DNA of 64,000 nt from Schmidtea nova (Eukaryota), in the NCBI GenBank assembly GCA_044892505.1, contig CM097884.1, positions 99,758,001 to 99,822,000 on the forward strand, written 5' to 3'. The position numbers and the translations under genes were made by a program. Every line of letters begins with the position of its first letter. Positions within the stretch are counted from its first letter, which is position 1. Below the pieces are notes generated by a model, which saw nothing but the letters and a program-made list of their open reading frames with translations, had not been told where the DNA came from and ran no database searches. Shown in pieces: positions 50,470 to 64,000 of this stretch.

Positions 50470-50529
50470 AGTAGTAGGATGTGAGCGCATCAGATATAGG
50501 TCAAGACCCCCCCCTAGAAAAAATTTTTT

Positions 50530-53514: not shown

Positions 53515-53982
53515 TCATGAGTCACACGATAATATGAAATCAACAAAGGCTTTATCTTCAATAATTGATTTTATATCTGTAATAATATTATCAACTATAT
53601 TTAAATAGTCTTTGTCTTTTAAACCTAATATAACTATTTTACCACTTGCAAATATATTAACACACATGGGATTATATTTTATATATCTCAAAGCTGGAAA
53701 TAATTCAGGCTCATAAACACATTCTAGTAATTTAGCCAAATCATTTAAATTACAAATAAATCCTAAATCTGACGTTACAGTAATCGATTGGATTGTTAAA
53801 TCATAAATCTTTACTTTTTCATCACTTATAAATTCCTTGCATCCCATAATTCTAAATCTCCCGGTCTTAAAATATATTATCGGATATTTACCACTTCTAT
53901 CAATAATTTGTTGTGGTTTCCCCTTAGGAAATTTCATGTGTGATACATCTGTCTTACCCTTATAATTTATGTTGCTAATCAT
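53515..53982 (-). CDS. TATA-binding protein (TBP)-like protein, 155 aa
   Basis: Second TBP repeat clear: TIQSITVTSDLGFICNLNDLA...YEPELFPALRY...NIFASGKIVILGLK. First repeat shortened: ISNINY...IIYFKTGRFRIMGCK. Confidence 0.88.
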   Translation of the reverse strand: MISNINYKGKTDVSHMKFPKGKPQQIIDRSGKYPIIYFKTGRFRIMGCKEFISDEKVKIYDLTIQSITVTSDLGFICNLNDLAKLLECVYEPELFPALRYIKYNPMCVNIFASGKIVILGLKDKDYLNIVDNIITDIKSIIEDKAFVDFILSCDS

Positions 53983-54103: not shown

Positions 54104-54727
54104 ATGGAATTAAGAAATGATGCAGTGTTTCAAATTGTTGGACCAAGCGGGAGTGGAAAAACTTTATTTGTTTGTAAATTATTACAATCAAAATTATTTA
54201 AATCAAAGTTTAATAAAATTTATTGGCATAGGGGTGCGGATGATGAACATGGAATGACTCAAGATCAATTTTGTAAAATAAAAATGACTATAATAAAAGG
54301 TTTCGATAAAAATTGGTCATCTAGATTAAGAGAAGGGGATGTGATTATTATTGATGATTTGTACCAAGAAGCAAATAAAGAAAAGGATTTTAACAATTTA
54401 TTTACCAAAATCGCTAGACACAAAGGTGTTACAGTCATATTTATTACTCAGAATTTATTTCATCAGGGCGGTAGTCATCGAACTCGTAATTTGAATGTTC
54501 AATATCTTGTTGTTTTTAAAAATCCTAGAGACGCAACAGTGATTGATTTTCTTGCAAGACAAGCATACCCTTCTAATCGTAATTTCTTGATTGATGCATT
54601 CCAAGATGCCACAAAAGCACCTCATGGATATCTTTTTCTTGATTTCACACAACAATGTAGTGATGATTTAAGAGTTAGAACCTATATTTTCAACAAGGAA
54701 GGAGCCATGGTTTATAAACAAAGTTAA
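54104..54727 (+). CDS. Polinton DNA-packaging ATPase (A32/FtsK-like)
   Basis: Walker A GPSGSGKT, Walker B VIIIDDL, ARHKGVTVIFITQN, FKNPRD. Confidence 0.95.
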   Translation: MELRNDAVFQIVGPSGSGKTLFVCKLLQSKLFKSKFNKIYWHRGADDEHGMTQDQFCKIKMTIIKGFDKNWSSRLREGDVIIIDDLYQEANKEKDFNNLFTKIARHKGVTVIFITQNLFHQGGSHRTRNLNVQYLVVFKNPRDATVIDFLARQAYPSNRNFLIDAFQDATKAPHGYLFLDFTQQCSDDLRVRTYIFNKEGAMVYKQS

Positions 54728-55290: not shown

Positions 55291-55345
55291 ACAATGGGAC
55301 AATCATTGCCTAATCTTAATTTAAACTTTAAATCTTCTTGTTGTA

Positions 55346-56393
55346 ATGGAGAAGATTTGGACCAACCCAAAACACGAAGCAGGTTTCGGTGGAGTCGAAA
55401 AGCTAAGCAAAAATGTATTGAATTCGAAAAAACAGACTCAAAGTTGGTTATCGGGGCAACTTGCATACAGTCTAAACAAACCGATGCTGAAACGGTTTCC
55501 GACTCGAGCATATAAAACATATAGAATTAATGATTTGTGGCAAATGGATTTGATGGAAATGATTCCGTATTCAAAAATTAACAAGGGATACAAGTATATT
55601 TTAACATGTATTGATGTTTACAGTCGTTTCGCTCGAGCTATTCCAGTAAAATCTAAATCTGCTAATGATATGGCAATCGCAATCAAAACAATGATGAAAA
55701 AGGATCGTCCAACTAATTTACAAACTGATTTGGGTAAGCTAATAAATATTTTATATAATGATAATTATTTATCCAGGTAAGGAATTTTACAATAGCAAAG
55801 TCAAAGAAATTATAAAGGGAATCAATCATTACTCAGTATTCTCTCAATTCAAAGCCGCTCATGTTGAAAGACTTAATCGTACATTACGAGATCGTCTCAA
55901 AAAATATTTTGTGCATCAAGGTAATAAAACATGGATTAATGTTTTACCACAAATTATTCATAGTTATAATCATTCTGCTCATCGAGGTATAAATGGAAAG
56001 AAACCTGCTGAAGTAGTTGATACTGAAAATATTTTGAGTGATACAAAAATAAAGAAACCAAAATATAAAATAGGTGATCATGTTCGAATTAGTAAAATTA
56101 GCGCATCGCCATTCATTAAAAATTTTGATGGTAATTGGAGTGATGAGGTATTTCAAATATCGAAAGTCAACACAGTCCAGAATCCTGTCATGTATACTAT
56201 TTCTGATTCTGATAACAATATAGTCAGTGGAAAATTCTATGAACAAGAATTACAAGTTATTCCCCCTCCGACAATATTTAGAATTCAAAAAATATTGAAA
56301 ACTAAAATGGTCGGTAAAGATAAACAATACTACGTCAAGTGGCATGGATATAAAGAACCATCATGGATATCGTCAAAAAACCTAGTAAAGTGA
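55346..56393 (+). CDS. Retroviral-type integrase with C-terminal chromodomain; one predicted 43-nt intron (55734-55776)
   Basis: WQMDL (D), LQTDL|GKEFY (D), AAHVERLNRTL (E). Chromodomain YYVKWHGYKEPSWI. Confidence 0.95.
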
Positions 56394-57409
56394 ATTTTTA
56401 TACTATATTACCAAGTAATAGCTGTCCGCTAATACATCCAGACAATCAAGCCAGTAAATTCATGGTCAATCTTCAAAATCCAATTTATTTAGATGGTAAT
56501 TGGGAAGTTGCATTACAAGATTTCACGTTTGTGTACAATACATTTCCATTTTATAGTCAATGTAAGATTGATTACAAAAGAATTGAAAATAGAACATGCA
56601 GTGGTCTATTCATCATCAACAATTTTGAAAGAATTTATAATATTCCTAACCAAAATTTGAATGTTCATTGTAGTATGTATTTCAGCAATGGTTGTTTAAA
56701 TATTAATTGTGATTTTACTCCATATACAATTACATTTAAAAATATTGAAGAAGCCAAGCGAATGGGAAGTAATCAACTTAAAATTGTGAGTACACTGAAA
56801 GAATATCAATTAAAGTTCATATTATTTGAACCGAATAGTTATTTGAAAGAAGATATTACGGTGACAATATCTTATGAGGCAGAAATTGAAGATACATTTA
56901 CATTTGCAAATGATTTGTATATAGTACAATTGGAAGATTTATCTAAATATTTATCATTCAATTGTTCCCATATCTTTAAAACTCTAGAGATTAATAAATG
57001 GTTCCAATTCTGTCTCAATGATAATATTAGTGAAGTTACATTTGATAAAAACTTGGTCAATACTTTAGGATTAGCTAAACAAACGTATAGAGACCGAAAC
57101 CTTATCGATGGGACTGTGAAACCTAAAATACTTGTTCATCATCAACAAATGTTCATTTACAGTAACATTATTGAACCAATAATTGTCGGTGATTCTCTGG
57201 TTCCTCTACTGAAATCTGTATGGATCGAAAAATATGAACAGGATGAAGTTGTACAAATAGTAATGGATAATCCAATGTACTTACCTATTTCTACCTCATG
57301 TATAAACAATATAGAAATAAATATACGTGACGATAGTGGTAAATTAATAAATTTTCCAAAAGATTCAAAAACATATTTGACATTACATTTTCGTAAATTA
57401 AATGAGTAA
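56363..57409 (+). CDS. Minor capsid protein (penton, PX)
   Basis: FYTILPSNS...NQASKF.V.L..PI.L.G.WEVAL; IYSNIIEP.IVGD...PLL; YLPI...INNIEINIRDDSG...F...LTLHFRK. Confidence 0.9.
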   Translation: MDIVKKPSKVNFYTILPSNSCPLIHPDNQASKFMVNLQNPIYLDGNWEVALQDFTFVYNTFPFYSQCKIDYKRIENRTCSGLFIINNFERIYNIPNQNLNVHCSMYFSNGCLNINCDFTPYTITFKNIEEAKRMGSNQLKIVSTLKEYQLKFILFEPNSYLKEDITVTISYEAEIEDTFTFANDLYIVQLEDLSKYLSFNCSHIFKTLEINKWFQFCLNDNISEVTFDKNLVNTLGLAKQTYRDRNLIDGTVKPKILVHHQQMFIYSNIIEPIIVGDSLVPLLKSVWIEKYEQDEVVQIVMDNPMYLPISTSCINNIEINIRDDSGKLINFPKDSKTYLTLHFRKLNE

Positions 57410-57767
57410 TCCCGATATAATTTCATTGTATAGTAATAGCCAAACCGGTGGTGAATTACCGTATTTTGTAGGTAAGCAGTATGGATCAGGTTGGTTGAAA
57501 ACTATTGGTAGATTTGCACTTCCAATTCTTAAACGACTAGGTAGTTTTGGAATGAAAACTGCTAGAGATGTTATCATGAAAGACCAGAAAATATTGCCTT
57601 CATTGAAAACGAATGCTATGGATGCTGTTTCAAAAGCGATTCCTTCAATTACAAATATGTTTACAAAAAAAGAACCTGAACCTGAACCAGTAGAACCAAA
57701 ACGTAAAAAAGGTAGAAAGCGTATAAACAATCGAATGAAAGGACATGGAACTATATTTGAAGAATGA
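57402..57767 (+). CDS. Conserved small Polinton virion protein (QxGxG type, amphipathic helix)
   Basis: SQTGGELPYFVGKQYGSGWLKTIGRFALPILKRLG. Overlaps the stop and start codons of its neighbours. Confidence 0.75.
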   Translation: MSNPDIISLYSNSQTGGELPYFVGKQYGSGWLKTIGRFALPILKRLGSFGMKTARDVIMKDQKILPSLKTNAMDAVSKAIPSITNMFTKKEPEPEPVEPKRKKGRKRINNRMKGHGTIFEE

Positions 57768-58983
57768 TTTGCGGTAAATCTGAATTATGTCTTTTTGATC
57801 GACCATCTCCCCAAGCAGTTATTGAATATGGGGTGTTTGAAGATGTGTTTCCAATGAATTCCATTACAGATAGTAGAAATGATATCGAATTTTACATTAA
57901 CGGTTCACAAACCGAATATTTAGATTTGAATGATACTTTATTATCCGTTACTGTCAAAGTTGTAGATAAAGATAAAAAACAATTAGCTGATGCTAGTGAT
58001 GTAGTACCTAATAATTACCTGTTTCATACACTTTTCAAAGATGCAATTCTTGGATTTAATAATATAAAGGTTGAAGGTGGAAACAATACATATGCGCACA
58101 AGGCAATAATTGAAACTATTTTAAATTATACTAGTGATGCAAAAGAAACTTGTCTTACTCCAATGGGATACGGCGCATCTGACGATAGAAAAAAGTGGAT
58201 TAAAGGATCGAAACTTTTCAACATGTGTTCATCATTACAACTAGATTTTTTGGATCAACCTAAATATTTACTTCCTGGAGTTAATGTACATATTAGATTG
58301 AAGAGATCTGATTCTGCATTATCATTGGCATCTACAGCTGGGAAACCAATAATACAAATAGTAGATGCAAAATTAATGGTACGAAGAGTTCGATGTGAAT
58401 CTTCAGTATTAGCTGGGCATCAAATTGGATTAAATAACAAACATGCAATTTATCCGATAAAATCAAAAGAAATTGTATCTTTTGCAATCGGTAAAGGGGC
58501 ATCATCTTTTTACAAGGAGCAAATATTTGGAGATAGAAGAATGCCTAATTTCATTCTTGTAGCTTTTCAAACTGAAAATCAATATAACGGATCTTATTCT
58601 GCTTCTTCATCTACATTCAAACATTTCAATGTAACATCATTATCTCTGTCAAAAAATACTGATTATCGGGAAACTTATAATCAAGATTTTGAAAATGATA
58701 ATTTTAGTGCCACATATATGCAAAGTCTTGTCCGGAATTTAGGATATTTGGATAAAAACTTGAATTGTGGTATAAGTCTAGATGAATTTAAATCAAGTTA
58801 TCCATTCTTACGTTTGTTCTTGCTCCTGATTTCGATTTGAATCAAAGTCAAATCCCTCAAAATGGAAATTTACGATTAGATATCAAATTTGGTAAAGCCA
58901 TTGAGGAACCGGTTCATGTATTAATATATGGAGTTTTTGAAAATGAAATCCAAATTACTGCAAATCGAACAGTATTAGTTTGA
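57764..58983 (+). pseudogene. Double jelly-roll major capsid protein (PY) with a single 1-nt frameshift near 58810
   Basis: KSELCLF, IEFYING...YLDLNDTLL, LQLDFLDQPKYLLPGV, YPI. The conserved C-terminus (FVLAPDFD...GNLRLDIKF...LIYGVFENEIQI) continues in another frame to TGA at 58981-58983. Confidence 0.9.
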
Positions 58984-59048: not shown

Positions 59049-59431
59049 ATGGAGTAAGATTTTAATTTGTAAAAATAATTAATTAAATTAGTTCAATTCA
59101 GGTATATAGACTTGGCAAAAAACTATTGGGAAATCAATTTATTGGAGTTTATCCATTAGATAAAATTCCTTATCTGGATGTTAATCAAGCTATCATCGTA
59201 AAAACTCAGACATCTACTTTGGGTGGTGAACATTGGATTGCTGTTTACGTTAAACCAGATCGAATATATGCATTTGATCCATTTGGATGTTATTATCCCA
59301 ATTTATTAGTTAGTAAATTGCAAACTTTGGGTAAACCGATTGTATACAATAGAATTCGATATCAACATCCATTAACAATTACTTGTGGTCAACATTGTCT
59401 TGCATGGTTATTATCCATGTTATATGTATAA
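59049..59431 (+). CDS. Adenain-like cysteine protease (start uncertain, possibly spliced)
   Basis: FIGVYPLD, GGEHWIAV (His), FDPFG (Asp), YQHPLTITCGQHC (Gln/Cys). Confidence 0.9.
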
Positions 59432-61512: not shown

Positions 61513-64000
61513 GCTCTCTATACCCTAAATATTGCAACATGTCAGGTAGTCACATCACTCAATGCCACAAACTCATGACTGTTTATTATCGTCAGAAGTT
61601 TAATGGCATTGATTACTATATATGCCCAAAATGTGAGACTTCACAATCCCTACCCTACTCTGATTTTTATTCTAAACATCATGAGCATCTTACACAATTT
61701 TTCAAATCGAAAAAACTTATTTTTAAAAAATGTAAAAATCAATCTTCTTCGTCGATTAAGGTATCTACTGAGAAATCAACTTCTTTGAATAATGTATCTG
61801 CTGAGAAATCGTCTTCGGTTAAAATTTCGTCGAATAATGTATCTGTTGATAATTCTTCTAAGAATAAATTACTCAATAATTTATTAAATAATTCAGACGT
61901 TCAAATTATTAATATAAATAATAATAATAATAATAATAATAATATCAAGAAAAGACCTGCTGATAAAATTAAAATTATTGCACCTAAAAAATATAAACCA
62001 GAAGTAATTATAATTAGCGACGATGAGGAAATTATTAATCAAATAGGAGGATCTATTGATATCGACGATGAGCCTGTAGTGGAAAAAGACTTAAGGGGAT
62101 CTCGACGCTCGTTAACTTTTAATGTCGAATCCCATAATATTAATCAAATTGCTGTCACAGAAAAAATTTCTGTGCGGTTAAATAAAGAAATTATCAAAAT
62201 GGGGAACGTAAAAATTCAATTCGCCCTTAATATTGAATTTGAAAAAGATGGGGTCTTTAAGAATGAATTTTTGTCCACTAAAGCTGAGATCTTTTCAGAT
62301 AATTTCTTAATAGAAAGCATTAGGAAATTATATAATAAAATAGAAAATTTTACACAACGGGGTAGCGGCTGGATTGTTAATAAAATAATGGAAATCCATT
62401 TTATTTTGACAAAAATTTCTACCATGAATCGATTATCTGGCCACGGACATTTTGAAACTCCTAACCCATTAAAAAATAAAAGGGCAATTATAAATGTAAA
62501 AAATTCAGATGATTTATGTTTTATATATAGTGTTTTGGCTATAACAAAATATAATTTAATCGTTAATAATCATAGTTCAGCCTCGAGTTATGTACCGTAT
62601 TTAAATGATTTAGTTTTTGACCCTTTAAAAGACTGTCCCATGAAATTATGCAATATCCCTAAATTCGAAAATAATAACCCTGGCTTAGCCATTAATGTGC
62701 TATCTTATAACCCTAAAGTGATTAGAAATAACAATATAGATATAGAAGATGATGATTATGTTCCTCATCATCCCCACTTGGTAATAATCCATCGCACAAA
62801 ATTAAATCATTTAAACCCTATTTATCTTTTATTATTAGAAGATAAGGGAATTTTCCATTATACTGCAGTTATTAATCTGCAAAGGTTAATGAACAGTAGT
62901 ATAAATAGTACAGTTACCAATAGGATTCAGTCGATATGGTGTCCCAGATGTTTAAACGGTTTCCGTATTCAGGAAACCTTTGATAAGCATTTTAATTTAT
63001 GTAAAAATAATCAAATAGGTGCAACCCTTTATAGTCTACCAAAAAATAAATATTTAGAATTTAAGGACTATTCCAAAACCGTAACCCCACCTTTCGTAAT
63101 TTATGCTGACTTTGAGTCAATTTTATCGGGTGATGACAGGTATCACCAAAAACATTTACCGATATCAGCAGGTCTATTACTTTTAAATAATTTAAATAAT
63201 TCAAAATCATATTATGAATTTATAGGTCTTGAATGTGTGTTAGAATTTTTAAAGAAAGTGGAGGAAATTGCTGTCACAATAGTACTCCCGTATTATGATT
63301 TATTCGGAAATACTCCATTAGGGCCTTTATCATTTGCTGAGCAGGAAGCTTTTAGGACTTGTTCAAATTGTTATTTATGTAAGAAACCAATTAGAAATAG
63401 AGTTCGTGATCACGATCACTTTTCTGGTAGATATCTTGGCGCTGCTTGCAACATTTGTAATATTTCCCGTAGAATTAGAAAACACTTACCTGTTATTTTT
63501 CATAATTTGAAAGGTTATGACCTACATCACATTTTGAAGTATGGTCTGTCTGATTGTTCATCTTGGGAATTAAATATTATTCCGACTACTACAGAGAAAT
63601 TTATTTCTCTTATAGCTCACATTGATAAACTTGCTGTTAGGTTTATTGACAGTTATCAATTTGTATCAGAGTCTTTAGATAATGCGGTTAAAACTCTGTC
63701 AGTTTTTCCCTTAACATCTTCAGTTTTCACTGGTTCAATTATGGATTGTAAGGGTATTTTCCCTTTTAATTTTGCTACGAGTCTTGAAGTCCTAGAATCC
63801 ACTCTTGAATTGCCTCCGATTTGGGCTAAGGTGTCTGAGGCTGATTATTTACGAGCTCAACAAATTTGGACTGAAAATAATTGTCTCAACTTGTTAGACT
63901 ATATGAAGGTTTATCTAAAGTTGGATGTATTTCTTCTAGCGGATTACTTTCAACAATTTCGAGCTAAGTCCATTGCTCACAATGGCTTAGATCCCTTAAA
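61513..64000 (+). CDS. Protein-primed family B DNA polymerase, main exon, open to the window edge
   Basis: Hand translation is open throughout. QRGSGW; OTU-like DLCF...FHY; Zn finger WCPRC; Exo I VIYADFES; HNH/endonuclease VII-like insert CYLC...RDHDHFSG...CNIC; Exo II IFHNLKGYD; Exo III YLKLDV. Confidence 0.97.

Follow-up and report, generated by a model that had tools for sequence, protein, structure and literature searches.

A 43-nt segment that splits the integrase gene of a Schmidtea nova Polinton is very probably a spliceosomal intron

The integrase frame of a Polinton-type element in Schmidtea nova shifts just past the second catalytic aspartate, and the locus raises the question of whether the 43 nt at the break are a spliceosomal intron or a lesion that is private to one decaying copy. 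If the segment is an intron, it must also be asked whether it was gained, how it was gained, and whether its splicing serves as a switch. We examined the 64,000-nt stretch of contig CM097884.1 that contains the gene (assembly GCA_044892505.1, positions 99,758,001 to 99,822,000 of the forward strand), which is referred to here as the window. Judged from its sequence, the gene is part of a Polinton/adintovirus module. The order of the module was TBP-like gene, ATPase, integrase, likely penton, major capsid, adenain protease, gap, and polymerase, and the order of the ATPase, capsid, and protease genes was conserved in relatives. This compact array (an rve integrase with a chromodomain, an ATPase, a capsid module, an adenain protease, and a family-B polymerase) resembled that of Polintons/Mavericks (adintoviruses; PMC8502044, PMC8097293, and PMC10748475, which, like the other papers identified by number below, are cited from excerpts of their text). 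The features of the element are listed in Table 1.

Table 1. Coordinates of the element's features in the window
Feature	Position	Strand	Remarks
Candidate left end AGTAGT	50470..50475	+	Field of subterminal repeats behind it, up to ~51.5 kb; 1 of 15 such hexamers on the strand, tentative
TBP-like accessory gene	53515..53982	-	No intron in the window
Packaging ATPase	54104..54727	+	Pox_A32; no intron; 64-75% identity to relatives
Overprinted 73-aa ORF	55294..55515	+	Starts Met-Gly, Cys-Cys pair; overlaps the integrase 5' end; no Pfam match
Integrase exon 1	55346..55733	+	Both catalytic Asp codons (55547-49, 55727-29)
GGTAAG, 5' copy	55733..55738	+	Last exon base plus donor
Integrase intron (very probable)	55734..55776	+	Phase-1, GT-AG, 43 nt, 84% AT; interrupts a Gly codon 2 codons past the second catalytic Asp
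GGTAAG, 3' copy	55776..55781	+	Last intron base plus exon 2 start; overlaps the retention stop codon 55778-80
Integrase exon 2	55777..56393	+	Catalytic Glu 55866-68; C-terminal chromodomain (weak match)
Likely penton/minor capsid	56363..57409	+	No intron; same position in relatives; named from gene order, no Pfam match
Double-jelly-roll major capsid gene	57764..58983	+	DJR-like match below cut-off; one frame break
Adenain-type maturation protease gene	59049..59431	+	ATG at 59049; first exon of 5 nt, then the body (59092-59431); Peptidase_C5 match above cut-off (E=9.3e-5)
Protease intron	59054..59091	+	Phase-2, GT-AG, 38 nt, 89% AT, 5 bases past the protease start
Divergent family-B DNA polymerase	61539..64000	+	N-terminal plus exonuclease part, on the far side of an assembly gap; continues past the end of the window

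The upstream part of the integrase frame (55346-55780) matched the rve domain (Pfam PF00665, E=8.8e-9, above cut-off), and the downstream frame (to 56393) gave a weak Pfam match to a chromodomain. All codons of the DDE triad were present, with both aspartates located 5' of the segment at 55734-55776 and the glutamate located 3' of it. When the two pieces were aligned with full-length homologues, they occupied adjacent columns that were separated by the split glycine alone in 13 of 13 cases. The segment started with GTAAGC and terminated with CCAG, and its AT content was 84% compared to 64% and 69% in the flanks. The coordinates, the GT..AG ends, and the homologue alignment bore out the initial annotation, which had described a 43-nt segment with GGTAAG at both junctions that splits the integrase frame. 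Features of a U2-type intron were also in place, namely, a GT donor, a YAG acceptor, and flanks corresponding to neighboring positions of uninterrupted homologues. Loose branch-like motifs were found 13 to 19 nt before the end of the intron; such motifs are common in AT-rich DNA and were missing from two of six introns in the protease gene described below. Without splicing, the integrase frame met a stop codon at 55778-80, and the earlier suggestion that integrase expression would depend on host splicing was in agreement with the premature stop predicted upon retention.

Both halves of the integrase were still conserved. Specifically, the window copy had lost conserved residues at 2 of 54 columns in the N-half and 3 of 85 columns in the C-half, which was no excess relative to 30 relatives; as many or more conserved residues were lost in 16 (N-half) and 7 (C-half) of these 30. 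Gap columns in the C-half numbered 8 in the window copy versus 0 to 5 in relatives, which, like a frame break in the capsid gene, points to some wear in this copy.

A second core gene of the element, that of the adenain-type protease, also appeared to be interrupted. The protease body had no in-frame methionine upstream, and the start was supplied by the 5 nt at 59049-53, an ATG followed by two further bases. As a control, we looked at the starts of other genes in relatives, and an in-frame methionine was present at 72 of 72. The segment between the putative start and the body (59054-59091) ran from GTAAG to TAG, and its phase fit the protease body. The same phase-2 site was found in seven of the seven related loci with the gene (L007, L011, L013, L017, L020, L021, and L023, representing five distinct elements; the distant protease of L024 was left out). 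The introns in these loci had GTAAGT donors, lengths of 37 to 47 nt, and AT contents of 74 to 93%, and the donor GTAAG was present at all eight protease introns when the window was included. Their interiors were only 47 to 74% alike, and fixed ends with changing interiors are the pattern of a working intron. In L011, an internal methionine was located a few residues into the protease body. The integrase intron of the window fit the set of protease introns in length, AT content, and donor.

A further candidate was found in locus L005, where the TBP-like gene contained a private 40-nt, phase-1 GT-AG segment in a glycine codon (positions 376-415) that the window, L012, L013, and L017 lacked. Because the integrase, protease, and L005 TBP-like genes all contained such segments, members of this Polinton lineage probably depend on splicing by the host and have acquired introns more than once. 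Gene callers that are blind to introns would mis-start or miss the protease gene. Additional short, AT-rich GT..AG segments were noted by eye in accessory or host genes at ~60.2-60.8 kb (+ strand), at 53.26-53.31 kb (- strand), and near 48.6 kb (+ strand).

The homologues indicated the direction of change at the integrase site. Among 239 homologous proteins that were fetched, 204 were contiguous at the D-x-G-x-E-F motif, 7 lacked D-x-G-x-E-F and terminated no more than 30 residues from the QTD motif, and 28 were not assessable at the junction. In addition, the insert was absent from 20 of 20 metagenome loci (~12 distinct elements) that spanned the site; L016, L022, L023, L025, and L026 were left out of this count, as their sequences stopped short of the junction. 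Searches for long proteins favor intron-free genes, and the counts thus speak to the ancestral state rather than to intron frequency. Since most homologues were contiguous at the junction, the integrase intron appeared to be a gain and not a loss.

Some of the relatives that were not contiguous broke at the same codon as the window copy. Proteins P0202 (tail KIII) and P0205 (tail N), which were among the top matches of a search with the N-terminal ORF and were 74-75% identical to the window protein, stopped just past the same glycine. Two more proteins were obtained via cluster look-up: P0239, which ended in QTDLG-KIII, and P0240, which ended in QTDLG plus 17 residues. In the P0240 tail, 14 of the 17 residues came from AT-rich codons and no clean junction was resolved, making it the weakest of the split relatives. 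Thus, the relatives that broke at this codon were 74-78% identical to the window protein, their tails differed, and all split forms terminated 1 to 17 residues past the glycine. Two additional proteins, P0125 and P0129, were C-terminal halves that began downstream of the junction. The pairs P0202/P0125 and P0205/P0129 were complementary halves on contigs of matching size and source (3759, JGI; 1550, Logan); the pairing rests on these equal contig sizes, and the split relatives are known from protein tails and not from DNA. An intron-spanning DNA pattern, which requires a CAA glutamine codon and an intron of 32 to 62 nt, matched the window and gave no matches in viral or metagenome contigs. A search of sequencing runs listed four runs of one organism with 0.71-0.78 of the query words and one soil metagenome with 0.20, none of them RNA, and it bears on splicing neither way. 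Searches of the viral and prokaryote collections yielded one distant locus and otherwise no matches.

Quick trees, the only kind cited here, were in line with a common origin of the split forms. In the C-half tree, P0125 and P0129 were the sisters of the window sequence (SH-aLRT 85), and these three rows nested in a 15-row clade (support 98) whose remaining 12 rows were contiguous. A single clade for the five split N-halves was not rejected (p-AU 0.76, with a log-likelihood 3.7 above that of the free search). The free N-half trees did not resolve the placement of the split forms, and a p-AU above 0.05 is no proof of a clade. Overall, the shared codon of the breaks strongly suggested that the integrase intron is common to close relatives. 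The initial annotation had reserved the possibility of a private disabling insertion; the breaks in P0202, P0205, P0239, and P0240 spoke against it. Together with the contiguous homologues, they favored the gained spliceosomal intron that had been proposed. Four other proteins were dropped as split relatives: P0207 and P0226, which ended at QTDL or QTDLGK and may mark contig edges; P0219, which had a motif mismatch; and P0204, in which the N-half was joined directly to the C-terminus. The fusion in P0204 was at the same glycine and involved the last 14 residues, and P0204 is probably an internal-deletion derivative of the P0240 lineage.

These findings made it very probable that the 43-nt segment is a genuine spliceosomal intron rather than a private lesion. 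The reading that we favor, to which we assign a probability of roughly 0.88, is that of an ordinary, constitutively spliced major-spliceosome intron that arose a single time, in the ancestor of a small Polinton/adintovirus clade, and has been kept since. In such a scenario, the element would be transcribed by Pol II in the host nucleus, and the spliceosome of an animal host with short introns would excise the introns. Because the host spliceosome would remove them, insertions that landed on donor-like G/GT sites would be tolerated and could then be fixed. The integrase would need one splice, as the protease presumably already did in the ancestor of the lineage. Transcripts that retained the intron would encode a 144-aa piece without the catalytic glutamate and would probably be destroyed by nonsense-mediated decay.

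The alternatives concerned either the use of the intron or its reality. One alternative is that the intron is real and is retained in a regulated manner, depending on the tissue or on whether the element is latent or productive. Splicing would then gate integration, and the truncated protein might serve as a repressor. The third intron of the P element would be an analogue. The positions of the catalytic codons are compatible with this idea, since retention would part both aspartates from the glutamate and stop the frame. The uniformly early ends of the split forms and the persistence of the intron across ~25% protein divergence are compatible with it as well. However, a nearby stop is expected from any AT-rich intron, the tails varied in length and sequence, the donor was a strong consensus site, and most relatives do without the integrase intron; we therefore regard regulated retention as improbable. 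The integration/lytic switch that had been suggested for the integrase intron found no backing, as most relatives lack this intron and the lineage-wide need for splicing sits in the protease gene, which the initial annotation had overlooked. An extension of the idea takes in the protease gene: with no in-frame protease start in the absence of splicing, the ancestral protease intron would gate virion maturation, the integrase intron would gate integration and yield a repressor that lacks the glutamate, and the splicing state of the host would choose between the integrated and the particle-making state. Excision also leaves a perfect donor where the two integrase exons meet, and this donor could feed a second splice to the capsid genes downstream. 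We consider this two-gate arrangement to be quite unlikely.

The least probable alternative, and one that we regard as very unlikely, is a private disabling insertion in a dying copy, in which a 6-bp target-site or repair duplication placed a second GGTAAG that mimics a donor. In its favor, the repeat at the integrase junctions was an exact 6 nt, compared to none at any of the six protease introns that were measured, Polinton integrases produce 5-8-bp duplications (PMC10748475), an acceptor would arise by chance in ~23% of cases once a duplication is given, and the capsid gene of the window copy is broken. It is opposed by the same-codon breaks and varied tails in relatives, by the fit of the segment's length and composition to the conserved intron of the lineage, by the conservation of both integrase halves, and by the scarcity of donor-like sites, which occur at fewer than 1 in 1,000 coding positions. 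Specifically, the chance that a random, duplication-flanked insertion would yield GTRAG..YAG was ~2 in 10,000 for each insertion, the product of the GTRAG frequency (46 in 57,117 coding nt) and the chance of an acceptor (0.23).

Even for an inherited intron, the GGTAAG repeat could bear on the mode of gain. The initial annotation had viewed it as consistent with a duplication or repair origin. In a scenario of this kind, a staggered-break repair or an integrase or transposon insertion would have duplicated GGTAAG, and the repeat would be a preserved scar. In the window as a whole, GGTAAG occurred about as often as expected (15 versus 14.45 times). The exactness of the repeat at both junctions stood, and GGT-AAG codons were found at the junction in 0 of 20 intron-free loci, both of which favor a duplication. 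Against it, the element used GGT for 33 of 80 glycines and AAG for 38 of 182 lysines. Given this codon use and the GTAAG donor seen at 8 of 8 protease introns, a 6-nt repeat has a probability of ~0.09 by chance (0.41 x 0.21); the first G and the Gly-Lys backbone of the repeat are fixed because the splice site and the protein require them. The tails of two split relatives also implied other donors. For P0205, the implied donor was GTAAY; it cannot be GTAAG, and hence the repeat cannot be intact there. For P0240, the implied donor was GTAT.

Other signs of a duplication or of a mobile intron did not emerge. Tandem duplication of exon DNA was not supported (p 0.66 and 0.93). The best match to a second intron copy in the window was 27/37, which was equalled by 21 of 100 shuffles, and no stable hairpin was found in the integrase intron; consequently, the window gave no introner signature. 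Comparative data cut both ways, as 43% of gained introns in Daphnia have short repeats, whereas in Drosophila the proportion with repeats of at least 5 bp is 25% for gained introns and 26% for conserved ones (PMC3443670). At a protein divergence of 25%, turnover of third codon positions is also to be expected, which weighs against a preserved repeat. Moreover, the gain looks old, judging from the 74-78% protein identity among the sharers, which makes the repeat unreliable as a scar. A duplication origin is therefore doubtful, and the repeat is better viewed as mostly donor consensus that coincides with Gly-Lys codons, with a short duplication at the time of gain being possible.

We compared the element to known systems. 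Intact vertebrate Mavericks are reported without introns in the excerpts of PMC8097293, and the core genes of nematode Polintons are described as intronless, with introns in cargo only (bioRxiv 10.1101/2022.07.12.499685); in contrast, two core genes were interrupted in the window element, one of them lineage-wide. A parallel within Polinton-type elements is provided by maverick-polinton-like proviruses of dinoflagellates, which contain spliceosomal introns in the form of multi-copy introners that were mostly inserted after integration (PMC11957031). Unlike these introners, the integrase intron was single-copy in the window, lacked a hairpin, was apparently inherited across divergent elements, and resides in an animal host. 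Ginger1 likewise has an intron-bearing DDE integrase-type gene, with one to four mostly GT-AG introns, some of which are conserved between families, but it is a cut-and-paste DNA transposon without a capsid, protease, or polymerase (PMC2836005). Recently gained introns of Daphnia share the short length, the G/GT site, and the junction-spanning repeat with the window intron, whose gain, as noted above, looks older (PMC3443670).

In a literature search that covered openly accessible papers, we found no account of spliceosomal introns in the core genes of animal Polintons. The excerpts of PMC11296320, 10.64898/2026.07.28.741278, and 10.1101/2024.03.25.586562 contained nothing on such introns, and those of PMC12220804 described group I introns only. 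Some surveys rely on long, uninterrupted ORFs to pick elements (PMC8502044 and PMC10748475). In a lineage whose protease intron is conserved and in which further introns were repeatedly gained later, such pipelines would split or mis-start members, and the pairs P0202/P0125 and P0205/P0129 look like examples. Reads that span the spliced protease or integrase junction cannot stem from contaminating DNA and would provide a test of virion-gene expression in animal Polintons. In addition, shared intron positions are useful clade markers.

The remaining observations concerned the rest of the element and its surroundings. Near 58.80 kb, the major capsid gene contained a single frame break that had no intron-sized insert and reflects decay or an assembly error. 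The candidate AGTAGT left end had the end motif of the Mavericks in PMC8097293, and the right end of the element fell outside the window. The window polymerase was 39% identical over 640 aa to the polymerase of L017 and had no PF03175 match. The L017 homologue contained Pol A/B/C-like motifs (identified by eye) and an endonuclease VII domain, and it resembled the divergent pPolB2 class (PMC10748475). The window polymerase, which has an endonuclease VII-like insert, was on the strand of the capsid module, and its counterparts in L013 and L017 were convergent; the gap at ~60.8-61.2 kb may conceal a mis-oriented join or a second element.

The TBP-like gene was also found in four related loci, on the opposite strand relative to the ATPase, and two penton-like genes in tandem were present in L002, L003, L004, and L013. 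An ORF similar to the one that overprints the 5' end of the integrase gene was found in 16 of 18 loci examined. Its Met-Gly start and Cys-Cys pair presumably indicate possible myristoylation and palmitoylation. Because the ATG of the overprinted ORF precedes that of the integrase, integrase translation may need leaky scanning.

The window also contained an exon of a soluble guanylate cyclase beta gene and pogo- and mariner-type transposons, as fits an animal host. A large inverted-repeat structure was located at 35.9-44.8 kb, between two pogo/Tc5-type transposase pieces, with arms of up to 1191 nt at 99% and 29-30-nt satellites. The arms of this structure contained ORFs with weak similarity to an accessory gene that is present in L005 and L009.
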